From Candidatus Altiarchaeota archaeon (GTDB lineage: Archaea > Altiarchaeota > Altiarchaeia > IMC4 > SCGC-AAA252-I15): a stretch of 64,000 bases of DNA. Shown piece after piece: positions 1 to 21,386 of this stretch. The stretch's first letter is position 1. Each line of letters opens with the position of its first letter. The stretch is from assembly GCA_043800255.1 (NCBI GenBank), contig JAZDNF010000009.1, positions 1 through 64,000 on the forward strand, given 5' to 3'. The position numbers and the translations under genes were made by a program. A model generated the notes under the pieces. That model ran no database searches and had not been told where the DNA came from. It worked only from the letters and a program-made list of their open reading frames with translations.

Positions 1-139
1 CGACGTAACCTCAGACAGAACCTGGACCTGGACCGACATAAGCAACATGAACGTCGAAGCCAGATTCATAAGAACCGGAGGCACAGACAACATAGACTGG
101 TACGTAGACACCCTATGGACAAGAATATGCCACACATAA
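1..139 (+). CDS. 3' end of an upstream, probably surface/pilin-associated protein (partial)
   Basis: Frame from nt 2 reads DVTSDRTWTWTDISNMNVEARFIRTGGTDNIDWYVDTLWTRICHT* and overlaps the next start; not in the ORF track. Confidence 0.55.
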   Translation, partial: DVTSDRTWTWTDISNMNVEARFIRTGGTDNIDWYVDTLWTRICHT

Positions 140-657
140 AAACAAAAAAAGGACAGATTAGCACTTTGGACCTAGTTCTAGCATCGTCTATCTTCATCGG
201 AATACTCCTCATAAGCATGACCACATGGAATGACGTGCTCATGAGAAGCTACCGTTTCGAGAACAAGAGGGAGATAAACCAGAAGGCGATGGACGTGTCG
301 GAGCTGCTGGTTCTGACCGGAGGCGACCCAGCATACTGGCATCTCTTCCCTATCGAAGACGTGAACGCAGACAATGTGACGTCGATCGGCCTTGCTGCGG
401 AGCCTAACTTCCTTGACAGGGACAAGATAGAGAAGATGGCGCAGGTGAACTATGACACGCTCCGCGACATCATGGGACTCAGCAAGGAGGACTTCAACAT
501 AACCATATACAACTCAACGAACCAGGCGGTCTATACGATGGGAATCGGGGAGAGCGAGGCCACAGTCGTTATGAGAAGGTACGCCCTCCTGGACGGCGAC
601 AACACGAGGATAGAATTGAGGCTGTTCTATAACATAAGCAGCGGATTGACGACATAA
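127..657 (+). CDS. Class III signal peptide (archaeal type IV pilin-like) protein
   Basis: KKG|QISTLD followed by a hydrophobic helix; start ATG 127 (alternative 115). Confidence 0.75.
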   Translation: MPHIKTKKGQISTLDLVLASSIFIGILLISMTTWNDVLMRSYRFENKREINQKAMDVSELLVLTGGDPAYWHLFPIEDVNADNVTSIGLAAEPNFLDRDKIEKMAQVNYDTLRDIMGLSKEDFNITIYNSTNQAVYTMGIGESEATVVMRRYALLDGDNTRIELRLFYNISSGLTT

Positions 658-658
658 G

Positions 659-1042
659 ATGACAGGACTGTTCACGTTGGACACGATACTGGCGATTACG
701 GTAGCCTTCAGCATGATAACCGCATCCTATCTCCTGCTAGCAGGCCAGAAAATAGACAACAGGGAGCACCTGTTCCAGACTTCGGCAGACATACTGACAA
801 TAGCCGAGAAGAACGGCAGACTGTCAAGAGCTATTGACGGCGACAAAAGCGGCATAAACGAGTATAAAGGCCTCCTCTCAAGCGGCGTATGCTTCAGCCT
901 CGACATAGAGAACACCTCAGGCAGCATCATCTCGCACGATGACACTGGATGCGATATGCCTGACTCCTATGCCATAGCAAGGAGGACAGTATACCATAAC
1001 AGGCAATTCTACATATCAACGCTGAGAGTGTGGTACAGATGA
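659..1042 (+). CDS. Minor pilin-like protein
   Basis: MTG|LFTLD plus hydrophobic helix; tandem with other pilin-like ORFs. Confidence 0.65.
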   Translation: MTGLFTLDTILAITVAFSMITASYLLLAGQKIDNREHLFQTSADILTIAEKNGRLSRAIDGDKSGINEYKGLLSSGVCFSLDIENTSGSIISHDDTGCDMPDSYAIARRTVYHNRQFYISTLRVWYR

Positions 1043-1857
1043 GAAAAGGCATACTCTTCACGATGCTGACGGTCCTGCTCCTGCTGTCAGTGTTCATACT
1101 GGCTTCGTACTTCTCAAAGCCTGATAGTAACAGGGACATACAGGGAGAGAAGACGAGGCTGATATACGATGACATACGGTCCGACTTTGAGGATATAACA
1201 GGCATTACGGTGACAGTAAACCAGACTTCCGACACGATAACAATCTCAGACAGGTTCCCCCTCGAAAACGGCACAGGACTGTTCGAAAGGTATGAGAGCT
1301 TCATAAACACCACATACGCTGGAAAATGGAACACGAACATAACACTGGCGAACGTGGGCGACCCGGCATTCTGGATATTCCCCTACTGGCTGAAGTACGA
1401 ATACGACAGCCTCAACAAGACGCTCCTAAGAGTTTACAACGCCAGCGGGAACGCGGACTACGTCGCAGGATACAACATAACGCTCGTATTCCACGGGAAC
1501 ATCGTCAACGTCTCGGAGAGCACGAACGGCGGCACATTTGAATTCTACCTGAACGCGACATTCGCGAACGGCTCCCATGCGTTCTCAGGGAACATAGCAA
1601 GAGACCAGAACTCGACCTGGTTCTTCGACTTCGGAACTTCGAACTTCACCATGCAGGCAGGCAAGAACGTGATAGCTGGGGAGGAGAGGAACAGCACACT
1701 CTCCTACAGGATAAACGGCTCAGAGGTAACCTCCCAGATTGCGATAAAATTCCAGGCAACAGAGGCAAACATAGGGATGAGACCGAACCTGTTCATAAAC
1801 ATAACCGACAAAGTGAAGAAGGCAGACTACGTCTGGATAACGCCGCCAACACCGTAG
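1039..1857 (+). CDS. Pilin-like/adhesin surface protein, many N-x-S/T sequons
   Basis: MRKG|ILFT plus hydrophobic helix; ATGA overlap with the previous gene; Ser/Thr-rich frame continues past the TAG. Confidence 0.65.
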   Translation: MRKGILFTMLTVLLLLSVFILASYFSKPDSNRDIQGEKTRLIYDDIRSDFEDITGITVTVNQTSDTITISDRFPLENGTGLFERYESFINTTYAGKWNTNITLANVGDPAFWIFPYWLKYEYDSLNKTLLRVYNASGNADYVAGYNITLVFHGNIVNVSESTNGGTFEFYLNATFANGSHAFSGNIARDQNSTWFFDFGTSNFTMQAGKNVIAGEERNSTLSYRINGSEVTSQIAIKFQATEANIGMRPNLFINITDKVKKADYVWITPPTP

Positions 1858-2033: not shown

Positions 2034-2065
2034 GTTTTTTATCCTGATATCAATAGTTAACAAGC

Positions 2066-3067
2066 ATGCCAAACCAAGAAACCGTAACCGAAAGCAGAAA
2101 CCTGCGGCAGGAGTTTCTAGAGCTTATCTTCAAGGCCCGCGCGGTTAGGCTGGGCGAGGCGTGCAAGGCCCTTGAAATACCGAAGAACACCGGCTGGGAG
2201 TGGGCTGTCCAGCTGAAGAGAGAGGGCCTCATAGAAGTCAGAACGCATCTTCTAAGGGATACTAAGCTCGTCAGGAGGGAGGATGCGCACATACCGAACT
2301 TCGGCAGCTGCACTGTGATAGCAGTGTCAAACCAGAAGGGAGGGGTCGGGAAGACGATAACCGCGATGAACCTCTCAGCTGCCCTCGCCCTCAAGGGAAA
2401 AAAGACCCTGCTTGTTGACTCTGACCCGCAGGCTAACACGACATCGGGCATAGGATTCGACAAGCACGGCATAAGATACAGCATATATGATGGCATAATC
2501 AGGGACAGGCCGCTCGACGACATACTGCTGCCGACCAACATCAAGAACCTGCATCTTGTGCCGTCGAACGTCGACCTCGCTGGAGCTGAGATAGAGATGG
2601 TCCCATTGGAGTACAGAGAAACCAGGCTAAGGCACCTTCTGTACGGCATAAGGGAGAAGTACGATTACATCATCATAGACTGCCCGCCGTCGCTTGGACT
2701 GTTGACTTTGAACGGGCTCACAGCCTCAGACTCGGTTCTCATCCCCGTACAGTGCGACTACTATGCGATGGAGGGGATGAGCCAGCTCCTCTACACCATA
2801 GACCTGGTCAAGAACAGGCTGAACCCGGGGCTGAAGCTGGAGGGGATACTGCTCACCATGTATGATCCCAAGATAAAGCTGTCAGTCCAGGTCGCCGACG
2901 AAGTCAAACACCATTTCAAGGACAGAGTGCACACTACGATCATACCGAGGAACGCGAAACTCGGCGAGGCTCCCAGCTTCGGGAAGACGATACTGGAGTA
3001 CGACAAAAACTCTCCGGGAGCTAAAGCGTACATGGAACTGGCAAAAGAGGTAATAGAAAATGGCTGA
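2066..3067 (+). CDS. parA: ParA/Soj family ATPase with N-terminal winged-helix-like extension
   Basis: Deviant Walker A NQKGGVGKT, DSDPQANTT, IIIDCPPSLG, IPRNAKLGEAPSFG; about 75-aa N-terminal extension. Confidence 0.9.
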   Translation: MPNQETVTESRNLRQEFLELIFKARAVRLGEACKALEIPKNTGWEWAVQLKREGLIEVRTHLLRDTKLVRREDAHIPNFGSCTVIAVSNQKGGVGKTITAMNLSAALALKGKKTLLVDSDPQANTTSGIGFDKHGIRYSIYDGIIRDRPLDDILLPTNIKNLHLVPSNVDLAGAEIEMVPLEYRETRLRHLLYGIREKYDYIIIDCPPSLGLLTLNGLTASDSVLIPVQCDYYAMEGMSQLLYTIDLVKNRLNPGLKLEGILLTMYDPKIKLSVQVADEVKHHFKDRVHTTIIPRNAKLGEAPSFGKTILEYDKNSPGAKAYMELAKEVIENG

Positions 3068-3257
3068 CAAAGTTTTGGGTAAGGGAATACGCGCCTTAAT
3101 CCCCGAGAGGCTTGAGACAGAGGACGAGGACGTGAGAAAGGTCCTGAGGATGTTGGACAACCTCCTTGAGAAGCTGCCGGACGATGCCGTGAAGGAATTC
3201 GCAAACTCTGAGGATTTCAGGCTATATGAGAAGGTTCTCAGAAAGTACGGGATATAA
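3060..3257 (+). CDS. Small protein with ParB/Spo0J-type N-terminal ParA-activating peptide
   Basis: MADKVLGKGIRALIP resembles the LG(K/R)GL.AL motif; overlaps parA by 8 nt and the next gene by TAATG. Confidence 0.75.
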   Translation: MADKVLGKGIRALIPERLETEDEDVRKVLRMLDNLLEKLPDDAVKEFANSEDFRLYEKVLRKYGI

Positions 3258-5611
3258 TGGGCTTAAGGGATAAGGCAAAAAAGCTGAGGGATGAAAAAAC
3301 CAAGACTCCGACTGCAAAGGCAGACAAGCCGCGAAAGGAGCTTAATGAACAGTCCTTTCTGAGCGTGATGCCTGAGTTCGGGAGGATAACCCTCCAAGAG
3401 ACTGTTGATAAGCTGGGTTGCCCTCCTGCAGAGATTAAGAAAGTCGCGAAAGAACTGGACAAGAAGCAGCTCATAAAAATACAAAAACACATAAGGGGGG
3501 AGACTGAATTCTGGGTGACCAGGAAACTCTACGACAGCAGGCAGGAGAAGCCGAAGAAGGAAAAGGAGAAAGCAGAGGAGCTCGGGAAACCGGCGGAGAA
3601 TGGAAGAATCGAGACCGATGAAACGAAAATCCGGCTCAGGGACATCGTGCCGTCTGAGGGAAGCCTGAGGCTGAGAGACGCCTGCAGCCAGCTTGGAATA
3701 GACAATACGCAGGGCAAAAAGCTCGCGAAGGCATTATACAATGACGGCTATGTCAGGGTTAGACTGCACTTTATGGGCGGCAGGGAGCTGCTGGCAACAA
3801 AAAAGCTGGTAACGTACCGGAAGGATCTCGAGGACTACGACAAAGCCAAGGCAGACGAGAGGCGCAGGGACGAAATCGCGAGTGTAGACAGGATAAACAC
3901 GCAGTTGGACGAGATCATCAGAGTGTTGAACAACAGGGGGAACGCCACAGTCTCCCAGGTATCCGAGTTGTTGAAGATTGAGCCTGACATGATACTGAGT
4001 TTCGCCAGGATTATGCCAAAGCTGGTGGATGTGGAATACCCTGCCAACATACTTGCCAGCCCAGTCCTGAAAATCAAGAAGAAGCTAGTATCGGCGGAGA
4101 GCCCCTTCCCCGCTGGGGAGATGCTGGACAGCTATACAGTGAACGCCGACAACGTCCCTGCCAAGATATTCATGATAGACACTCCCGAGGATTCGATGCC
4201 GCTTTATGTAATGAGGATACCGACGCCGGGGCCGGGAACGCGGGAGGCCGTAAGGTTCCTCTCAGACAAGCTCAGCGACGAGATAACAATACAATCCGAG
4301 GAGATAACAGACCCCAAGAGGATGGCCGAACTGAGGAAGAAGTTCGGCGACATCTCGACAAAGCTTGTCGAAAATTACATACCAGCCGGACAGGATGAGA
4401 AGAAAATCCTGGCGGGGATGCTGCTGCACAGGACATTCGGGCTGGGCTATGTCGAGCTGATGATGAACGATGACTGGCTTGAGGAGGTCTGCGTCAACAC
4501 AAGCCACACGCCGCTGACAGCATACCACAAGAAGTTCGGATGGTCTATGACCAACATGTTCCTGGAGGACGAGAACATGATATACAATTACGCCTCCCAG
4601 ATTGGCAGGAAAATCGGGAAGGGGATATCGAACCTGGACCCGATAATGGATGCCCACCTGCTCACCGGGGACAGGGTGAACGCCACACTGTTTCCCATAT
4701 CGTCTTTGGGGAACACGATAACCATACGGAAGTTCGCGAGGCAGCCGTGGACGATAACCCATTTCATATCCCCGGAATATCTGACGCTGTCGAAGGAGAT
4801 TGCCGCGTTCCTGTGGCTCTGCCTGCAGTACGAGCTTAACATCATAGTCGGCGGTGGAACAGCATCCGGAAAGACGAGCGTCCTCAACTGCCTGCTGTCG
4901 CTGATACAGCCAACGCACAGGATAATAACCATCGAGGACACGAGGGAGATAAACCTCCCAAAATTCCTGTACTGGAACTGGATTCCGCTTACTACGAGAG
5001 ACCCGAACCCTGAAGGCAAGGGCGAGGTATCGATGCTCGACCTGATAGTGACGTCACTCAGGATGAGGCCTGACAGGGTGGTCTTGGGCGAAGTCAGGAG
5101 GCGGAACGAGGCTGAAGTCATGTTCGAGGCGATGCACACCGGCCACTCCGTCTACGGCACCATGCACGCTGACACGTCAAGAAACCTGAAGAGGAGGCTG
5201 CTTGAGCCGCCCATAGAGCTGCCGGCGCAGGAGGTCGAAGCCCTCCACCTGATACTGATACAGTACAGGGACAGGACTACGGGGAAGAGGAAGACGTTCG
5301 AAGTCGCTGAGATAGTGCCTGGCACCGAGTCGAAGGAGTTCGACCTCAATTATCTGTACAGGTGGAACCCAAGAACCCAGAGCTTTTCAAAGATCAATGA
5401 AAGCCAGAGAGTATACAACGAGCTTAACCTGCACACCGGCATGGACAAGGACGAGATCGAAAAAGACCTGAAGGAGAAGGAGGAAGTGCTGCAGTGGATG
5501 CTCGACAAGAGGATAGACACCATAGACGAGGTCGGCCGCGTGATGGACAGATACTACAAGAACAAGAACAGGCTGCTTGACATTGTAAGAGCGAAGAAGG
5601 ATTTAGAATGA
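3257..5611 (+). CDS. Type IV pilus/Tad secretion ATPase (CpaF/FlaI/VirB11 family) with long N-terminal wHTH-like repeats
   Basis: GGTASGKT, ITIEDTRE, LRMRPDRVVLGEVR, MHTGH. Confidence 0.9.
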   Translation: MGLRDKAKKLRDEKTKTPTAKADKPRKELNEQSFLSVMPEFGRITLQETVDKLGCPPAEIKKVAKELDKKQLIKIQKHIRGETEFWVTRKLYDSRQEKPKKEKEKAEELGKPAENGRIETDETKIRLRDIVPSEGSLRLRDACSQLGIDNTQGKKLAKALYNDGYVRVRLHFMGGRELLATKKLVTYRKDLEDYDKAKADERRRDEIASVDRINTQLDEIIRVLNNRGNATVSQVSELLKIEPDMILSFARIMPKLVDVEYPANILASPVLKIKKKLVSAESPFPAGEMLDSYTVNADNVPAKIFMIDTPEDSMPLYVMRIPTPGPGTREAVRFLSDKLSDEITIQSEEITDPKRMAELRKKFGDISTKLVENYIPAGQDEKKILAGMLLHRTFGLGYVELMMNDDWLEEVCVNTSHTPLTAYHKKFGWSMTNMFLEDENMIYNYASQIGRKIGKGISNLDPIMDAHLLTGDRVNATLFPISSLGNTITIRKFARQPWTITHFISPEYLTLSKEIAAFLWLCLQYELNIIVGGGTASGKTSVLNCLLSLIQPTHRIITIEDTREINLPKFLYWNWIPLTTRDPNPEGKGEVSMLDLIVTSLRMRPDRVVLGEVRRRNEAEVMFEAMHTGHSVYGTMHADTSRNLKRRLLEPPIELPAQEVEALHLILIQYRDRTTGKRKTFEVAEIVPGTESKEFDLNYLYRWNPRTQSFSKINESQRVYNELNLHTGMDKDEIEKDLKEKEEVLQWMLDKRIDTIDEVGRVMDRYYKNKNRLLDIVRAKKDLE

Positions 5612-6492
5612 GAATCCCCTTTATGATAGTGCCGGCGAAGAGCGTCGTAGTCCGCGCCCAACGTTGGAGAGGCATAACCTGCAGGATCTCCAACCTGATA
5701 CCCCAGCTGGAAACCAGCCTCAAGAGGACTGACGTGAGGATAAGGGCTGAGGACTACATCAGCGCCGCCATAATCAATTCCATAATCTGGGGGCTGCTGT
5801 TTTTCATACTAATATACGCGCTTCTTACGGTAGTGGGAGAAGGCTACAACAGGGCTATGCTGATGTCTGCCGGCGCGTTCCTGCTGGCGTTCGGGCTTTT
5901 TCTGGTAGTGCTGCTCCTGTACCCGAGGATTATGGCAGGGAAGAGAGCTGAGAGCGTTAACAAGGATCTCGCATACGCCCTGAAGGACATGTTGCTGGAG
6001 GTGAGCGCAGGCTCATCATTGTATGACGCGATGCTTAACATCGCAAAATCAGACTACGGAGTCGTCTCCGAGGAGTTCGGCCTGATAGTAAAGAAGGTCG
6101 ACACCGGCGTTCCTTTGGACGATGCCATGGAGAGCCTCGCCCTCAGAACCAGCTCGGATTACCTGAGGAACGCGACATGGCAGATGATAAACGCCCTGAA
6201 GGCAGGCTCCAACATCGAGAGCACCTTGAGGGAGATCGTCAGGATGCTGATCGATAATCAGAGGAACATGATAAGGAACTACGCCCAGGAGCTGAACGTC
6301 CTGTCCCTCATATACATGCTCTTCGCCGTGGTCATCCCGACGATAGCGTCGACGATTGCCATAATAGTGGCGCCGTTCCTGGGCATAGCAGCCGGGCCCA
6401 GGATATTCTACTTCATACTCCCTTTAACGTTTTTCATACAGATCGCATTGCTTGAGCTTATCAAAAGCAGGAGACCGGTGATACACCTCTGA
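5608..6492 (+). CDS. Type II secretion system F family (TadB/C, FlaJ-like) membrane platform protein
   Basis: TM helices flanking a cytoplasmic domain (DYGVVSEEF...); ATGA-coupled to the ATPase. Confidence 0.85.
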   Translation: MRIPFMIVPAKSVVVRAQRWRGITCRISNLIPQLETSLKRTDVRIRAEDYISAAIINSIIWGLLFFILIYALLTVVGEGYNRAMLMSAGAFLLAFGLFLVVLLLYPRIMAGKRAESVNKDLAYALKDMLLEVSAGSSLYDAMLNIAKSDYGVVSEEFGLIVKKVDTGVPLDDAMESLALRTSSDYLRNATWQMINALKAGSNIESTLREIVRMLIDNQRNMIRNYAQELNVLSLIYMLFAVVIPTIASTIAIIVAPFLGIAAGPRIFYFILPLTFFIQIALLELIKSRRPVIHL

Positions 6493-6494
6493 AA

Positions 6495-7460
6495 ATGCTG
6501 AACAGGATTTTCATCACAGCCTCGAAGGTCTATCCTAAGGGGTACAGGAACGGCGTTCGGAAGAACCTGGGATACGCCGGCATCGAGACTCCGGTGGAGA
6601 TTTGGCTGGGGCAGTCCCTCTTCATAGGATTCTTCGTCCTCATCGCCATCTCGGCTCTCGCAAGATTCGGAAACCCTGTCCTGTTTTACACCCTGGCTTT
6701 CCTCTCGTTCATGATATACCAGGTTGGCTCCTATTCGATACCGTACTTTCAGGCTATGAACCGCTCAAATGCTGTCGACGAGATGCTTCCTGACCTGTTG
6801 AGACTGATGGCGACCGATATCAGGGCGGGGATGACGCCCTTCCAGGCAATAAAAGTCTCTGCGAGGGATGAGTTCGGCATCCTCAAGCACGAGCTTGACA
6901 GGGCAAGCGCAAAATCCCTCGGCATAGGCTCATTCAATGAGGCCCTGCTTGAGATGTGCGACAGGCTCAATTCATACGCGCTGAACAGGGCCATGAGATT
7001 GTTCATCAGGAGCATGGAGGGCGGAGGACAGCTTGCGAACGTCTTGGACGAGACAGCGAGAGACATCTCAGAGAACCTTTCGCTCAAGAAAGAGCTTCTG
7101 TCAGCGACCAGGACCTACACCATCCTCATACTGGTGAGCGTCCTCATTGGAACGCCCCTGCTGCTGACGATCTCGATACACTTCACTGAGAGGGTCAATG
7201 AGATGCGGGAGTCGCTTAACGTCTCTGACATGGAGAACTTTGATCTGGGGATGCTGCTGAACATGGGCTTCGACCCAGCGGTGTTGGAGAACATATCAGC
7301 CATAACAATTCTGGTAACGACTTTGATAGCCTGCATGCTGTTCGGCGTCATAGTGGAGGGCAAGGAAAAATACGGCCTGAAGTACGCCTTCTTCCTGGTG
7401 CCGCTGTCGCTGATACTGTTCTACGCGTTCAGGCTGGCGAGCAAGATAATACTGAAATAG
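6495..7460 (+). CDS. Second T2SS-F family membrane platform protein
   Basis: LPDLLRLMATDIRAGMTP, EFGILKHE, GGQLANVL motifs; multiple TM helices. Confidence 0.85.
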   Translation: MLNRIFITASKVYPKGYRNGVRKNLGYAGIETPVEIWLGQSLFIGFFVLIAISALARFGNPVLFYTLAFLSFMIYQVGSYSIPYFQAMNRSNAVDEMLPDLLRLMATDIRAGMTPFQAIKVSARDEFGILKHELDRASAKSLGIGSFNEALLEMCDRLNSYALNRAMRLFIRSMEGGGQLANVLDETARDISENLSLKKELLSATRTYTILILVSVLIGTPLLLTISIHFTERVNEMRESLNVSDMENFDLGMLLNMGFDPAVLENISAITILVTTLIACMLFGVIVEGKEKYGLKYAFFLVPLSLILFYAFRLASKIILK

Positions 7461-7513: not shown

Positions 7514-7957
7514 ATGAGGAAAGCACAGGCGTCGACCGAGTATCTGGTAATCCTTGCAGTTGTCATTATCATAGCTTTGGTCGTTGTGGCCGTATTAGGA
7601 GGTTTTATAGACATTGGAAGAGGAGCTGACGCTCAGGCTGCCAAGTCTTATTGGAGGATAGCCGACATCGGACTCGTGGACTGGAACCAGGATGCAACCA
7701 CTCTGACAGTTGTTGCCAGGAACAACCAGGACTACAAGATTGCCATAAGCGCTATCAGCCCTGACGGCGGTGTGACTAATTCGTCAGCCAATTCGGGGCC
7801 GATACAACCAGGCGGAACGAAGACCTTCACGATAACCAAGTCTTGCAGTAGCGGTGACACGTACAGTTACCCGATGACGGTTTACTACAACGACACCCAG
7901 CATGGCATAAACAGCAAGATCTTCACCGGCGCGAAAGACGTAATTGGGACCTGCTAG
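7514..7957 (+). CDS. Archaeal type IV pilin, probable major pilin
   Basis: MRKA|QASTEYLVILAVVIIIALVVV canonical class III signal with E+5. Confidence 0.88.
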   Translation: MRKAQASTEYLVILAVVIIIALVVVAVLGGFIDIGRGADAQAAKSYWRIADIGLVDWNQDATTLTVVARNNQDYKIAISAISPDGGVTNSSANSGPIQPGGTKTFTITKSCSSGDTYSYPMTVYYNDTQHGINSKIFTGAKDVIGTC

Positions 7958-12462: not shown

Positions 12463-13251
12463 ATGGCAAAGGAGAATTCCAAGGAGAAGGAGTTTATGCC
12501 GGTCAGGGTGTCGACTTTCGACAAGCTGATAACAAACGGCGGGATTGAGAGGGGGAATACTGTGCTGCTCTCTGGGGGGTGCGGTTCCGGGAAAACAATA
12601 TTCGGAGTCCAGTCGGTATACAATGCCGTCTTAAACAACGAGAAAGCAGTCTACATAACATTGGAGGAGACTGCGGAGAAGATCAAACGGCACATGAAGA
12701 GGAACTTCGGCTGGGATTTGGATGCGCTGGAGGAGAGGGGCAGCCTGTCGATGCAGTACATAGACTCAGTCGAGCTTGCAAAAGACATAGAGCAGACGCT
12801 GGATGAAGGTGATCTGAGGGACAAGTCATCGATTGAGCTGATACTCGAAAAACATCCTGAGATATCTCTGATAGACTCGAGGAGGGTTGGACTGCCGTTC
12901 AAGCCTGACAGGATCGTCGTCGACTCGCTGACAGCTCTTTCAAGCTCTTTCTCAGACCTGAAGAAGTACAGGCTTTACCTGCAGGTTATGGTCGACTCGC
13001 TGAACAAGCACGATTCCGTGAACATCCTGCTCGGCGAGACTGACCAGGACCCTGTGAAATACAGCTCGCACGGGCCGGAGGAATTCCTCGTCGACGGCGT
13101 GGTCGTGCTCTACAACATCAGGAAGGGGCAGCTGAGGAGGAGGGCCATAGAAATCGTAAAGATGAGATGCTCGGACCACGTGAAGGAGCTTATCCCTTAT
13201 ACGATAGACAAGAGCGGTTTCAAGATAATGCCCTCTGACAAACTTTTCTAG
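12463..13251 (+). CDS. KaiC/RAD55-like single-domain ATPase
   Basis: GGCGSGKT, YITLEE, VVDS, EEFLVDG, KMR. Confidence 0.85.
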   Translation: MAKENSKEKEFMPVRVSTFDKLITNGGIERGNTVLLSGGCGSGKTIFGVQSVYNAVLNNEKAVYITLEETAEKIKRHMKRNFGWDLDALEERGSLSMQYIDSVELAKDIEQTLDEGDLRDKSSIELILEKHPEISLIDSRRVGLPFKPDRIVVDSLTALSSSFSDLKKYRLYLQVMVDSLNKHDSVNILLGETDQDPVKYSSHGPEEFLVDGVVVLYNIRKGQLRRRAIEIVKMRCSDHVKELIPYTIDKSGFKIMPSDKLF

Positions 13252-16482: not shown

Positions 16483-17199
16483 ATGGAAAAGGACAATCTG
16501 GAGAGGATTCCGACTGGCATACCAGGGTTTGACGAGATGATAGAGGGCGGAATCGAGAAGAGTAGCACAGTCCTCGTCATAGGAGGCTGCGGAAGCGGGA
16601 AATCCACGCTGTGCATGCAGTATATCATCAACGGGTGCAGGATAGGACAGCCAGGAGTCTACGTGAGCATGGAGGAAAGCCCTGACAAGATAAAAAAGCA
16701 TATGAGACGCTTCGGCTGGGACCTCGAGAAGTACGAGAAGAACGGCCTTCTGAGAATCATAAGAATAGGTCCTAAAGACGCGCTCCAGGTCATAAAAGAG
16801 GATTACGGCCAAATAGCGAACGCAATAACAGACCTGAAGGCTGAGAGGATGGTCATCGACTCTATCAGCAGCCTGGAATCACTTCTTGAAACAGACCACG
16901 ACATAAAGGAGAATGCTGTGCGCCTGGTCGAATGGCTTAACAAGAAGAACTGCACAACCCTGATAATCTCAGAGTCTGAGGAGACGATAGGCGAGTACAC
17001 CCGCCACGGCATAATGGAGTTCGTAGTCGACGGCGTCATAGTGATGTACAACATGCAGAAGGGAAACGTGAGGGAGAACGCTTTGGAGGTTTTAAAGATG
17101 CGGGGCACAAAACACCTGAAGATGATAGTCCCCTTCAAGATTGACAAGGGCATAGAAGTGTTCCCGCACGAGCAGGTCTTCGGAGAATGCGAGAGATAA
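16483..17199 (+). CDS. KaiC/RAD55-like ATPase
   Basis: PTGIPGFD, GGCGSGKS, VIDS, LKMRG. Confidence 0.88.
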   Translation: MEKDNLERIPTGIPGFDEMIEGGIEKSSTVLVIGGCGSGKSTLCMQYIINGCRIGQPGVYVSMEESPDKIKKHMRRFGWDLEKYEKNGLLRIIRIGPKDALQVIKEDYGQIANAITDLKAERMVIDSISSLESLLETDHDIKENAVRLVEWLNKKNCTTLIISESEETIGEYTRHGIMEFVVDGVIVMYNMQKGNVRENALEVLKMRGTKHLKMIVPFKIDKGIEVFPHEQVFGECER

Positions 17200-18159: not shown

Positions 18160-18864
18160 ATGGAAAGAGTGGAGTCGGGAATCGAAGGCCTTGACAAGAT
18201 GCTGGACGGAGGGTTCCTGAAAGGCAGACCATACATCATAACAGGCGGCCCAGGCGCGGGGAAAACGGTGCTGTGCATGCAGTTTCTGATGGCTGGCGCT
18301 AAAAAGAAGGAGAAAGGCATTTACATCGCGCTGGAGGAGCAGGCTGCCGAGCTCAGGGAGGACATGGCCCAGTTCGGCTGGGACCTTCACAATATCAAGA
18401 TTGTTGACACCGTGCAGGAGATATCGTCAGGCGTGTGGGCGCTGAAAACAGACAGCGTCATCTCAAGGCCGGAACTCAACATATCGAACATAGCCAAGAT
18501 GATAGAGAACAAGATAGAGAACTACTCCGCTTCACGGGTTGTGATAGACTCTGTCACGACCATCAGGATGCTCGCATCGAACAGCAGTTCGGTCAGAAGC
18601 GACATACTCTCCCTGATAAACTTCCTCAAAAAGAAGGACTGCACTACCCTGCTGACGCTGGAGACTGAGGACGCCAACAGAGTGCTGATGGAGGAGTTCC
18701 TCGTCTCGGGCGTGATAAAACTTCATAACATACAAAAGGACGGGGAGTACGTCAGCGCGTTGAGCATAGAAAAGTTCAGGGGCTCATCATTCGACAAGCA
18801 CCTCAGGCCCTTTAAGATAACATCCAGTGGGATGAAAGTCTTCTCAGACCAGACTCTTATCTGA
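18160..18864 (+). CDS. KaiC/RAD55-like ATPase
   Basis: SGIEGLD, GGPGAGKT, EEFLVSG, KFRG. Confidence 0.88.
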   Translation: MERVESGIEGLDKMLDGGFLKGRPYIITGGPGAGKTVLCMQFLMAGAKKKEKGIYIALEEQAAELREDMAQFGWDLHNIKIVDTVQEISSGVWALKTDSVISRPELNISNIAKMIENKIENYSASRVVIDSVTTIRMLASNSSSVRSDILSLINFLKKKDCTTLLTLETEDANRVLMEEFLVSGVIKLHNIQKDGEYVSALSIEKFRGSSFDKHLRPFKITSSGMKVFSDQTLI

Positions 18865-19251
18865 TTACTCTGCTTCAGCCACAGGAGGGCCTGCATGGGC
18901 TATCCGCATACCGTTTGGCACAACAAGTATCTTCTCATCGGATATCTTGCCCAGGTCGCCGTCGATTTCTATGCAGGCGTCCCTCAGCTCGTGCACTATG
19001 TCCTTAAGGAGAACCCGGTTATGCATGAGAGCGCTGACGTTCAGGACAACGATGTTGTTCTTCTCCAGCTCGGCTATGACCTGGCCTATGCCCTTGCCTT
19101 CAGCCGTGAGGGCGACAGGCTTGACGTAAGTGACGCCCTCAGTCTCGATTATCTTACCCTCACGTATGGTAAGCTCGTTAAGATAATCCTCGATATCAAT
19201 CTCGCCTCTAATGCTTTCCTTTCCTCCCCCGAATAACCTCTTGAATGGCAT
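18865..19251 (-). CDS. sepF: Cell division protein SepF
   Basis: NIVVLNV, IDGDLGKI, KILVVP pattern of archaeal SepF. Confidence 0.75.
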   Translation of the reverse strand: MPFKRLFGGGKESIRGEIDIEDYLNELTIREGKIIETEGVTYVKPVALTAEGKGIGQVIAELEKNNIVVLNVSALMHNRVLLKDIVHELRDACIEIDGDLGKISDEKILVVPNGMRIAHAGPPVAEAE

Positions 19252-19347: not shown

Positions 19348-20613
19348 ATGATTAAGAGTTTGTTCGAAGAGGAGCTGGCTGATAGGGCCATATTCAAGGA
19401 TTTGAAGGTTCTTTCGCCCCATTACATCCCAGACAACCTGCCGCACAGGAAGCAGGAGAGCAAGCAGATCATCAGGATACTGGCCCCGATCCTGAGAAAC
19501 GAGAAGCCCAACAACGTATTCATCTACGGCAAAACGGGGACAGGAAAGACGTCTGTGGTGAGGCACGTCATACGCGAGCTTGAGAGCATCGTCGCAGACC
19601 CGGCGAGGAACAAGAACAATTCAAAGGTAGCCTCGGTGTACATGAACTGCGGCCTCGGTTACAAGTCGAAATACCAGGTTCTGATAAAGATACTGGAGGA
19701 TGAGAAGCTTAACGCGGAAGGCCTTAAGGATGCGCCATTATCCGACAGGGGTAACAAGGGCCGCCTTATGGGCCAGACGCCGGCTGAACTGTACGAGCGG
19801 CTGAAGAAGCTGGTGGAGGCCAACAGCCTGAGCCTGATACTCGTCCTCGATGAGATAGACCTCATCAGGCAGGTTGACAGTCTGCTCTACCTTCTTACGA
19901 GGATAAACGACGACATAAAGGCAGGCAACGTCAGCACCATAGGCATCTCGAACAAGTACACGTTCAAGGATTACCTGGATTCTAGAAGCAAGAGCACGTT
20001 GTGCGAGGAGGAGCTGGTGTTCAGACCCTACAACGCCAACCAGCTTAAGACAATCCTGGCGCACAGGGTGAAGCTCGGCTTCAGGAGCGGGAGCATCTCG
20101 AAATCGAACATCGCCCTGATAGGGGCCTACGGCGCCCAGACCAACGGCGACGCAAGATACGCCTTAAAACTGTTGCAGAAGGCCGGCGAAATAGCGCAGA
20201 ACGCCGGCAGGAAGAGGATAAGGACTGACGACGTGAAAGATGCTAAAGTCAAGGTGGAGGAGGACATAATCTACGAGCTCATCTCAACCCTCCCAGACCA
20301 CCAGCAGATAGTCCTTTACACCATAGCCGAGACCGTTGTGAGGGGGGGACAGTACAAGAGGCTTTCGAACACGCCGAACGACATACTCTCTTCCGGCGAA
20401 GTCTACGAGTCCTATGAGAAAATCTGCAAGCAGATGGAAGTCAAGTGCAGGACCATGCGATGGTTCAGGGAGTACTTGAACGAGCTGGAGATGCTGGGCC
20501 TGATAACACTGACAATCTCAGGTAAGGGAATAAGAGGCAACACAACACTCATACGATTGGGCAGCCAGCCTGAGGAGGTCAAGAGCATAGTCGCCCAGAG
20601 CCTGGGATTCTAG
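19348..20613 (+). CDS. cdc6: Orc1/Cdc6 replication initiator
   Basis: LPHR, GKTGTGKT, VLDEID, GDAR, C-terminal wHTH (ELEMLGLI...GIRG). Confidence 0.92.
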   Translation: MIKSLFEEELADRAIFKDLKVLSPHYIPDNLPHRKQESKQIIRILAPILRNEKPNNVFIYGKTGTGKTSVVRHVIRELESIVADPARNKNNSKVASVYMNCGLGYKSKYQVLIKILEDEKLNAEGLKDAPLSDRGNKGRLMGQTPAELYERLKKLVEANSLSLILVLDEIDLIRQVDSLLYLLTRINDDIKAGNVSTIGISNKYTFKDYLDSRSKSTLCEEELVFRPYNANQLKTILAHRVKLGFRSGSISKSNIALIGAYGAQTNGDARYALKLLQKAGEIAQNAGRKRIRTDDVKDAKVKVEEDIIYELISTLPDHQQIVLYTIAETVVRGGQYKRLSNTPNDILSSGEVYESYEKICKQMEVKCRTMRWFREYLNELEMLGLITLTISGKGIRGNTTLIRLGSQPEEVKSIVAQSLGF

Positions 20614-20618
20614 CAGGA

Positions 20619-21386
20619 TCAGACTATTCCCTTCTTTATCGCTGAAGCCACTTTAAGGCCTTTTCCTGTGAACTCCAAGGTCATCGGCTTGAGGGAGTGC
20701 TTCGTCAGGCGCATCTTCCTTATCCTGATGGTCCTCGTGTCCAACGCCTCGTTGGCCTTAAGGATTATGACCCCATCGGTCACGTACTCTTCGATTTCAT
20801 ACTTTGAGATGCCGTCATCCTCAACGGTCTCAGATATCATAATGGCCGTGAGCCCGTGGTTCTTGAGCTCATAGTTCATGTTCACGAGCAGCTTCCTCAG
20901 GTTGAACTTGTCCTGCATGAGCACGTCTATCGCCGGCAGGCTGTCTATGATAACCCTCTTAGCGCCTATCTTCTTCGCAGTCTCGCATGTGATCTTGGTT
21001 ATCTTCTCCAGATCGAACTCGCCTGGCAGCAGGGAGAAGCTCTTCTTCGGCGTTATCGGCACGTCAACGACGAAGTCCTTCAAACCTACCTTTGACAGGC
21101 TCGTGTCTATTATTATGATCTTGCCGCTCTCTTCCAGCTTAGTCAGGTCAAGACCGTATGCGAGCATGTCATTTTTTATCTCGGACGCGGACTGCTCAAG
21201 AGTCAGGAGAACGCCCGGCTCGTTGTACTTTTCAGCCCCGTTCACGAGAAATTGAACCGCTAATGTCGTCTTGCCTGTTCCGCAGCCTCCTGTGAGCAGT
21301 ATGCACCTGCCGCGGGGGAATCCTCCGCCAACAAGCTCGTCTAAGCCTTCTATCCCTGTCTGACATCTTTCAACGGATTGCGCCAT
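20619..21386 (-). CDS. KaiC/RAD55-like ATPase
   Basis: TGIEGLD, GGCGTGKT, IIDS, EEYVTDG, KMR. Confidence 0.88.
   Translation of the reverse strand: MAQSVERCQTGIEGLDELVGGGFPRGRCILLTGGCGTGKTTLAVQFLVNGAEKYNEPGVLLTLEQSASEIKNDMLAYGLDLTKLEESGKIIIIDTSLSKVGLKDFVVDVPITPKKSFSLLPGEFDLEKITKITCETAKKIGAKRVIIDSLPAIDVLMQDKFNLRKLLVNMNYELKNHGLTAIMISETVEDDGISKYEIEEYVTDGVIILKANEALDTRTIRIRKMRLTKHSLKPMTLEFTGKGLKVASAIKKGIV

Follow-up and report, generated by a model that had tools for sequence, protein, structure and literature searches.

What stands in for ParB behind a Soj-type parA gene in an archaeal genome in which no ParB is found? The question is raised by a 64,000-nucleotide (nt) stretch of DNA from Candidatus Altiarchaeota archaeon (assembly GCA_043800255.1, contig JAZDNF010000009.1, positions 1 to 64,000, forward strand; the whole stretch is called the window below), in which a gene of 65 amino acids (aa) lies between parA and the gene for a type IV pilus ATPase. 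Many cargos are positioned by ParA/MinD ATPases, but for most the coupling partner is unknown, and archaeal examples are few. An initial annotation, made from the DNA letters alone, had read the small protein as the ParA-activating peptide of ParB joined to a small helical domain, and as an adaptor that attaches ParA to a protein cargo. Our analysis leads us to lean toward a two-module adaptor, in which the ParB-type peptide would engage ParA and the helical domain, TP_0179, would engage the N-terminus of the pilus ATPase. The features on which this reading depends are as follows.

2066..2311, + strand: winged-helix module of ParA, residues 1-82, homologous to winged helix 2 of the ATPase extension (hhalign, phmmer)
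2312..3067, + strand: Soj-type deviant Walker A ATPase of ParA, residues 83-333 (AAA_31, 222.5 bits)
3047..3051, + strand: Shine-Dalgarno-like GAGGT box, 8 nt 5' of the ATG of the small open reading frame (ORF) (sequence reading)
3060..3257, + strand: small gene, 65 aa, ParB-type peptide plus TP_0179 domain (ORF listing)
3069..3107, + strand: ParB-type ParA-interaction motif, residues 4-16 of the small protein, KVLGKGIRALIPE, central K8 (top match of a ParB-N profile in the genome)
3123..3254, + strand: TP_0179 domain (PF27359), residues 22-65 of the small protein, three helices, acidic, isoelectric point (pI) 4.9 (precomputed Pfam label, alignment, model)
3257..3301, + strand: basic N-terminal helix of the pilus ATPase, residues 1-15, MGLRDKAKKLRDEKT, pI 10, conserved; proposed docking site for TP_0179
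3347..4075, + strand: ATPase residues 31-273, three winged-helix domains with long helices between them (AlphaFold2, predicted local distance difference test [pLDDT] 74.8)
4244..5611, + strand: FlaI/TadA-like type IV filament ATPase core (T2SSE, 103.7 bits)

A small gene in the parB position

The 65-aa ORF directly follows parA, where parB usually lies, and it is a real gene, placed as the initial annotation said. The last codons of parA, the TGA stop of which is at 3065-3067, contain its ATG (3060-3062), and its TAA stop (3255-3257) has one base in common with the ATG of the next gene, that of the pilus ATPase (3257). These overlapping stops and starts suggest translational coupling of parA, the small gene and the ATPase gene. 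The corresponding position is occupied by orthologues of 59-70 aa (38-57% identity) in six further family genomes.

The full-length protein is acidic (pI 5.1). Its AlphaFold2 model, from a 38-row alignment, has a pLDDT of 74 and contains helices at residues 23-37, 41-48 and 51-62 (pLDDT ~81-84 there), preceded by a flexible N-terminus with a one-turn helix at residues 10-13; no ribbon strand is present. The three helices agree with the small helical segment that had been proposed for the remainder of the ORF. Word-index homologue searches with the small protein and with the ATPase extension each returned the query alone, and a PDB sequence search with the small protein at E up to 10 returned only designed helical bundles and a weak, unrelated match (E 0.0038). 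With the model as query, Foldseek gave nothing informative (best E 8.4), and the best match of a wide VIA-align search was a generic helical one (Z 4.0).

The N-terminus resembles the ParA-activating peptide of ParB

A ParB-N profile was made from 54 distinct N-terminal blocks of bacterial ParBs, drawn from 80 bacterial Soj loci; in 74 of these a ParB with the GERR box was found that starts in the LG(K/R)GL manner. Among the 10,938 ORFs of at least 40 aa in the genome (1.75 Mb on 17 contigs, 93% complete), the small ORF ranks first on this profile, matching at residues 4-16 with 13.0 bits versus 6.4 bits for the runner-up. As the profile is short, with an E value of 0.06 for this match, the peptide evidence is rank evidence, and its weight comes from the rank, the N-terminal position and the adjacency to the genome's only Soj-type ParA, taken together. 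The ParBs encoded after the closest bacterial Soj genes begin alike (for example MAIKRKALGKGLSALIPEELEQED at locus L021, and also L074). The motif also occurs in four other TP_0179 carriers, at 21.5, 17.7, 10.7 and 10.1 bits, the next scoring 2.7 among the 150 representatives listed. Conservation of the motif among homologues, on which the initial annotation had staked its reading, holds in part: it is strong in three of the seven family orthologues (13.0 bits in the window, 11.8 in G011 and 10.6 in G001) and degenerate in the other four (2.3-4.7 bits in G002, G016, G018 and G020), the ParAs of which are also the most diverged of the family.

Beyond this peptide nothing of ParB is found. Pfam and NCBIfam scans of the 65 aa (the Pfam set being scanned without PF27359) found no family, hence no ParB/Srx CTPase domain and no helix-turn-helix (HTH), and a search of the whole genome with ParB_N (PF02195) gave 0 matches, the same search being positive in 10 of 14 control genomes. 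A repeat search near the locus yielded only short matches in two to four copies and no array fit to be a centromere. The small protein thus has one of the features that define ParB, the peptide, and lacks both the CTPase domain with its GERR box and the HTH/parS features, as had been claimed from the sequence.

The neighboring ParA looks able to read a peptide of this type, to judge from its pocket residues. Its best solved relative is the ParA of PDB entry 8RAY (296 bits, ungapped), and its C-terminus aligns to the end of Soj. The 8RAY chain has A at Motif 2 position D60, matching the Myxococcus xanthus ParA-D60A of PMC12462528, which fixes the M. xanthus numbering. According to passages of that paper, L150 and L152 of M. 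xanthus ParA bind ParB, residues Y81, E82, D110 and E117 take the central R/K, and about half of chromosomal ParBs carry K at the central position. The matching residues in the window ParA are Y141, D142, D170, E177, L210 and L212 (for Y81, E82, D110, E117, L150 and L152, respectively), and the catalytic residues K91, K96, D118, D120 and N124 are kept in the KGGxGKT deviant Walker A, Motif 2 and Walker B loop. Together, the profile rank and the place beside a Soj-type ParA with a ParB pocket support the peptide as a true ParB-type ParA-interaction motif, as first proposed.

In its ATPase part (84-333), ParA has 50-63% identity to bacterial chromosomal Soj proteins from Bacillota, Atribacterota, Bacteroidota and others (51-63% to the 20 sampled), and a search of genome contigs with ParA returned bacterial Soj loci exclusively. 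It is the sole Soj-type ParA in its genome, the two MinD-like paralogues matching it at 23 and 17 bits. In a ParA tree, the 20 sampled bacterial Soj proteins form the sister group of the window ParA (100/98), with the other ParAs of the family outside; the bacterial rows are best hits, some on long branches, and no transfer direction is claimed. The N-terminal winged helix of ParA is related to the ATPase, residues 14-69 aligning with ATPase residues 124-179 at a probability of 96.0% (hhalign, E 4.2e-9).

TP_0179 is a widespread C-terminal domain

Which other proteins carry residues 22-65 was a question posed by the initial annotation. An HMMER scan answers it with the TP_0179 domain (PF27359), found in 629 representative clusters at E up to 1e-3; the PF27359 label is a precomputed protein-database annotation, and the TP_0179 name comes from atlas clusters with rows "under the bar". 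The domain nearly always forms the very C-terminal end of its carriers, which range from 48 to 942 aa and elsewhere hold coiled coils, zinc ribbons, tetratricopeptide repeats or nothing; the domain is present in bacteria too. Residues D33, L35, L39, P40, F47, S50, L55 and Y56 are conserved in the small-protein alignment (A2). We found no paper that mentions PF27359 and none on the function of the domain, the TP0179 papers listed being, by title and abstract, treponemal genomics, with one unrelated paper. The reading developed here would give a candidate function to this widespread family, which is named after a Treponema pallidum ORF.

The gene after TP_0179 nearly always encodes a protein that begins MGL

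The cargo of the small protein is suggested by gene order. We compared 49 TP_0179 genes, namely that of the window, those at relatives' loci and those of 24 metagenome loci picked by the TP_0179 pattern. In 47 of them the next gene lies at -1 to +76 nt and its product begins with Met-Gly-Leu and then basic residues in the form MGLxxK, with MGLRDKAKKLRDEK in the window; the two exceptions are L112, where the contig ends too early to tell, and L093, where the MGL start is absent. Most of the 45 junctions listed as fitting the pattern are overlaps or few-base gaps, some gaps being 22-76 nt, and 38 of them are distinct at the DNA level. Since the Gly and Leu codons vary synonymously at these junctions, the constraint acts on the protein.

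The reverse count gives the same association. Of the ORFs of at least 100 aa that start with MGLxxK/R/Q in 427 kb of the same sources, 33 of 34 stand directly 3' of a TP_0179 gene, and the single exception is in L093, 2.5 kb from the TP_0179 gene of that locus. As background in the window's own genome, 4 of 1590 long ORFs fit a lenient MGL motif, the complete form of which is confined to the pilus ATPase. The MGL-start products are diverse and include T2SSE ATPases, T2SSF platform fusions, a DUF2226 protein, accessory proteins of 270-330 aa and unannotated proteins of 1003-1664 aa. The charges of the two proposed partners are complementary (pI 4.9 for the TP_0179 domain versus pI 10 for the MGL peptide). 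Co-folding of the small protein (A2) with ATPase residues 1-340 (A3) gave scores of 0.05 and 0.00 versus a mark of 0.32, without controls, and weighs neither way.

In the window, the MGL product is the pilus ATPase of 784 aa, which NCBIfam models of FlaI (256.8 bits) and of the TadA family (158.1 bits) both match under their curated cut-offs. Residues M1, G2, L3 and K6 of its N-terminus are invariant in seven orthologues, and in the model a helix at residues 3-15 is followed by a disordered segment at 16-30. The winged-helix array beyond it has as structural neighbors in Foldseek the tandem winged-helix proteins TFIIIC tauB (1.1e-5), UFL1/DDRGK1, RPC62, ScpB and ESCRT-II, with further neighbors among DNA binders such as MarR, TrmBL2 and RbkR.

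Some of the largest MGL-start products are at metagenome loci L114 (5159-10027), L115 (5141-8149), L117 (5137-10128) and L129 (202-4578), where a TP_0179 gene is followed by one for a protein of 1003 to 1664 aa or longer. These proteins begin MGLR(E/Q)KA(R/K)K and match no Pfam family, and several of the TP_0179 genes in this set encode an N-terminal zinc ribbon.

Conservation of the arrangement among relatives

With a threshold of E below 1e-9, the small gene was called in 7 of 21 genomes of the family (the window's genome, G001, G002, G011, G016, G018 and G020). At all seven loci the order is winged-helix ParA, small gene, long ATPase. A Soj-type ParA (E up to 1e-30), the small gene and the full ATPase extension occur in the same 7 genomes and in 0 of the 14 others. 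A 590-aa frame in G012 and a second locus of G002 (583 aa) match residues 213-329 of the ATPase extension only.

Outside the family, 15 loci from other families of the order were compared; L105 and L107, which have no TP_0179 gene, and L106, with a weak 55-aa match, were excluded from the counts. At these loci, the product of the TP_0179 gene is a coiled-coil protein in which the domain occurs twice, save in L093, L096 and L103, where the body is different (that of L093 has a membrane segment). At 12 of the 15 loci, the two-TP_0179 coiled-coil gene is followed by an MGL-start accessory gene of ~320 aa and then by a T2SSE ATPase gene, often with TadB and TadC genes; a Soj-type ParA stands beside the TP_0179 gene in none. 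By hhalign (94.7%), winged helix 2 of the ATPase extension in the window has a homologue in the C-terminal winged helix of the 320-aa accessory, implying that the accessory has been fused to the ATPase in the window's family.

Several loci show variants of these genes. Elsewhere in the window's own genome (G000), a 590-aa ORF (contig C8:3280-5052, + strand) has the winged-helix module of the ParA N-terminus (phmmer E 1.7e-4, residues 6-59); this ORF and the 583- and 590-aa frames of G002 and G012 may represent a second, shorter paralogue of the pilus ATPase. At L108 (4172-7429, - strand), the orthologous ATPase is extended at its C-terminus by an acidic tail of ~300 aa in which a KMSPTMKAM-like motif recurs. 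One sister-family genome has, at L095 (20-751, + strand), a 243-aa ORF of the MinD/ParA family (CbiA, 1.2e-16) directly 5' of a two-TP_0179 coiled-coil gene, a different P-loop partner in the position of the window ParA.

Three genomes of a sister family (L146:2482-4794, - strand; L147:6353-8815, + strand; L134:3-593, - strand) have a Soj-type ParA, 49-52% identical to that of the window and without the winged helix, followed by a coiled-coil protein of 770-820 aa. These coiled-coil proteins begin with a ParB-like peptide (KGLETLIP, KDLEALIP or MGLDILIP) and have no ParB domain; the ParB-N profile matches the peptide weakly (3.3 bits) or not at all. They would be a second transplant of the ParB peptide.

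A proposed adaptor between ParA and the pilus ATPase, and its alternatives

We consider it somewhat probable that the small protein is a two-module adaptor, with a ParB peptide for ParA and a TP_0179 domain for the N-terminus of the pilus ATPase. Residues 4-16 would bind and activate ParA. After a short acidic linker, the acidic three-helix TP_0179 domain (22-65) is predicted to dock on the basic N-terminal helix of the ATPase (MGLRDKAKK...), a helix that the structural model puts on a disordered tether ahead of the three winged-helix domains. The pilus motor would then be the cargo, and ParA might place, count or gate pilus machines, by analogy with TadZ/CpaE, FlhG and ParC-ParP elsewhere. 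The outcome could be pilus machines placed or spaced along a ParA pattern, or a gated recruitment of the motor, and the winged helix of ParA may add a direct contact with the ATPase array or bind DNA. We infer both bindings, the ATPase stimulation and the cellular outcome. That the small protein links ParA to a protein cargo was already the idea of the initial annotation; the ParB-type peptide, the lack of a CTPase domain and HTH, and the helical domain point the same way, and the pilus ATPase encoded by the next gene is the likely cargo because TP_0179 genes pair near-universally with a downstream MGLxxK product.

More tentatively, and with doubts that we would not call small, TP_0179 and the MGLxxKAxK N-terminus might form a general docking code, in which a C-terminal domain binds the N-terminal helix of the next gene's product. 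Such a code would connect cytoplasmic scaffolds of various kinds (coiled coils, zinc-ribbon and membrane proteins) to giant proteins without annotation as well as to platform proteins and type IV filament ATPases. It would operate in archaea and might extend to spirochaetes. Within one family of archaea, the ParA-activating peptide of ParB would have taken the place of the scaffold, and a Soj-type ParA close to bacterial Soj would have gained a winged helix like that of the ATPase extension, leading to ParA-driven positioning or gating of the pilus motor.

Several observations weigh against the adaptor. The ParB-N profile is short and its match to the small ORF has an E of only 0.06, four of the seven orthologous peptides are degenerate, and one of these (L003) has E at the expected K/R position. 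All of the MGL-pairing loci were found through TP_0179 and, with many of them from a single archaeal order and duplicates among them, they are not independent; the sample comprises loci of the archaeal order and metagenome loci, bacterial TP_0179 carriers lying outside it. Position 298 of ParA is K in the window, and 17 of 20 bacterial Soj proteins have R or K there, but four relatives have A, T or E; from work in Bacillus subtilis, we take this position to be a DNA-binding site. A ParA bound to the nucleoid is also no obvious agent for a machine in the membrane. Finally, the winged helix of ParA, which did not figure in the initial annotation, leaves room for a direct link: it could join ParA to the ATPase or to DNA without an adaptor.

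This last point leads to the strongest alternative, which we regard as unlikely: the small protein might be just a minimal activator of the ParA ATPase, with TP_0179 dimerizing or binding the winged helix of ParA, and ParA might act through that winged helix on DNA, for instance by repressing the pilus operon, or touch the ATPase winged helices directly. Type Ia ParAs repress their own operons. Here the N-terminal winged helix of ParA, a tandem winged-helix array in the ATPase that counts MarR, TrmBL2 and RbkR among its neighbors, and an operon that probably begins at parA all fit. However, TP_0179/MGL pairs occur without a Soj ParA in the 12 of 15 loci outside the family and in metagenome loci, which makes ParA unlikely as the partner of the domain, and the best neighbors of the array (ScpB, ESCRT-II, UFL1 and RPC62) are protein scaffolds.

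A less probable account takes the TP_0179/MGL pairing as a matter of co-translational assembly or chaperoning, with the ParB-like peptide a relic or weakly functional. The overlaps and few-base gaps at most of the listed junctions are what it would have, as is the degeneration of the peptide in four orthologues; against it, the peptide is retained in precisely those genomes that have a Soj-type ParA, the pocket residues of ParA are kept as well, and canonical peptides recur among the metagenome representatives. It is more improbable still that ParA segregates the chromosome with the small protein as a SegB-like or ParG-like centromere-binding partner. A Soj-type ParA, a small gene in the parB position and an Orc1/Cdc6 gene 16 kb away (19348-20610) would suit such a system, whereas the small protein is acidic and all-helical without a ribbon strand, there is no repeat array in the neighborhood, the genes form part of a pilus operon and are inherited together with it, and TP_0179 is present on many non-DNA proteins. 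That the small ORF is no gene and arose by chance in the overlap of parA and the ATPase gene, a thought prompted by its shortness, is scarcely credible in view of its six orthologues in place, the 629 homologous representatives, the confident three-helix model and the Shine-Dalgarno-like box.

Comparison with known ParA/MinD systems

The N-terminus of the proposed adaptor is like that of ParB/Spo0J (M. xanthus ParB 1-20; passages of PMC12462528) in being unstructured, in having aliphatic residues around a central K/R (LGKGIRALIP) and in following a Soj-type ParA with the pocket. It differs from ParB/Spo0J in the absence of the ParB/Srx CTPase domain, HTH, parS and clamp, having instead a 44-residue TP_0179 domain. 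Similar in organization are ParP (with ParC), McdB (with McdA), TlpT (with PpfA) and PomX (with PomZ), in which, by the account in passages of PMC11407121, the gene of the partner adjoins that of the ATPase and an N-terminal ATPase-engaging peptide is combined with a separate cargo part, a combination that the small protein shares by prediction. In its adjacency to parA at 7 of 7 loci and its co-inheritance in the same 7 of 21 genomes, the small gene behaves as do the genes of protein-cargo partners. What sets the small protein apart from these four is its canonical chromosomal ParB-type peptide, its TP_0179 cargo module, the proposed type IV pilus ATPase cargo, the archaeal host and its length of 65 aa.

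Among pilus-associated ATPases, TadZ/CpaE offers a likeness, as a ParA/MinD-family gene directly precedes those of the TadA-type ATPase and of TadB and TadC (passages of PMC13170226 and PMC6668835). The CpaF hexamer of the Caulobacter Tad machine is encircled by six CpaE dimers (PMC13170226), a precedent for gating of a Tad ATPase by ParA/MinD proteins, and TadZ has profile similarity to archaeal pilus components (PMC6668835). TadZ, as described in passages of these two papers, differs in its receiver-like N-domain, in a Walker A that is atypical and in an amphipathic helix at its C-terminus, and it lacks a separate peptide partner. The window ParA was considered as a TadZ and rejected, given its winged-helix N-domain, its Soj-like C-terminus and a CpaE_hom_Actino score of 25.7 bits against a cut-off of 154.45.

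Archaeal pilus operons also contain P-loop ATPases of the ParA/MinD type that are presumed regulators (FleN/MinD-like, arCOG00589; passages of PMC4858521). These are MinD/FleN-like, whereas the window ParA is Soj-type and far from the MinD-like paralogues of its own genome; the passages found in PMC4858521 mention no ParB-peptide partner. In SegA/SegB of Sulfolobus (PMC8682754), the gene of an archaeal ParA is followed by that of a small partner other than ParB; unlike SegB, the small protein is acidic and all-helical and has no notable PDB sequence match at E up to 10. A literature search that left subscription journals and Pfam annotation text outside its scope found no description of the ParA/small gene/ATPase arrangement or of the TP_0179/MGL pairing.

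If the adaptor reading is right, ~13 residues of ParB peptide and a 44-residue domain would make a minimal coupler, both predicted contacts being short. The locus suggests that the ParA-activating peptide of ParB is a portable module able to move between proteins, with a candidate second case on the 770-820 aa coiled-coil protein in the same order. It would also link the Tad/Epd-like pili of archaea with regulation of the ParA type, a matter of interest for how TadZ/CpaE arose.

The surrounding pilus operon and the rest of the window

Judged by gene content, the surroundings are an archaeal Tad/Epd-like type IV pilus operon and not a partition cassette. Its further features are these.

115..1857, + strand: three pilin-like ORFs (115-657, 659-1042 and 1030-1857) with N-terminal hydrophobic segments, the upstream part of the pilus locus (sequences read)
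2035..2042, + strand: TTTTTTAT box, ~27 nt 5' of the parA ATG (sequence reading)
5608..7460, + strand: two single-domain T2SSF platform genes, TadB/TadC-like, 5608-6492 and 6495-7460 (PF00482, 65.7 and 58.8 bits)
7514..7957, + strand: pilin with a class III signal peptide-like N-terminus (PF04021, E 0.0018, under cut-off)

From parA to tadC, stops and starts overlap or almost touch all along, an ATGA overlap joining the stop of the ATPase gene to the first T2SSF gene. In archaeal leaderless transcripts, a spacing rule relates the TATA box to the start, and TTTTTTAT is a possible TATA box of a leaderless transcript running through parA, the small gene, the ATPase gene and tadBC. Orthologues of the 7514..7957 pilin stand after tadC in L104 and L108, and secreted or pilin-like genes similar in kind to the three upstream ORFs, which match no Pfam family, precede parA in relatives.

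In region 1777-2036 of the window (+ strand), the 275-aa pilin-like ORF ends just past WITPPTP. Past its stop, the same frame runs on as a Ser/Thr-rich stretch (TAESTTSTSTTSTA) until a second stop, and a 44-aa Cys-rich ORF with the end CCCG comes next in another frame (1899-2033). Relatives L002, L003, L005 and L008 have a W[IL]TPP motif and a Cys-rich end in one ORF, with a Ser/Thr-rich linker between them in L002 and L008. The window ORF looks to have been split by a stop and a frameshift, through gene decay or an assembly error.

An Rfam scan of the window gave 0 matches. The remaining window is chromosomal housekeeping, including Orc1/Cdc6, SepF, NAC, PEPCK and several KaiC-like ATPases. 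Orc1/Cdc6 and NAC, together with the class III signal peptides and the FlaI-type ATPase, mark the organism as an archaeon. KaiC-like ATPases associate with archaeal pilus systems, according to passages of PMC4858521. Four of their genes lie within 9 kb (12463-13251, 16483-17199 and 18160-18864 on the + strand and 20619-21386 on the - strand), where they surround the genes for SepF (18865-19251) and Orc1/Cdc6 (19348-20610).

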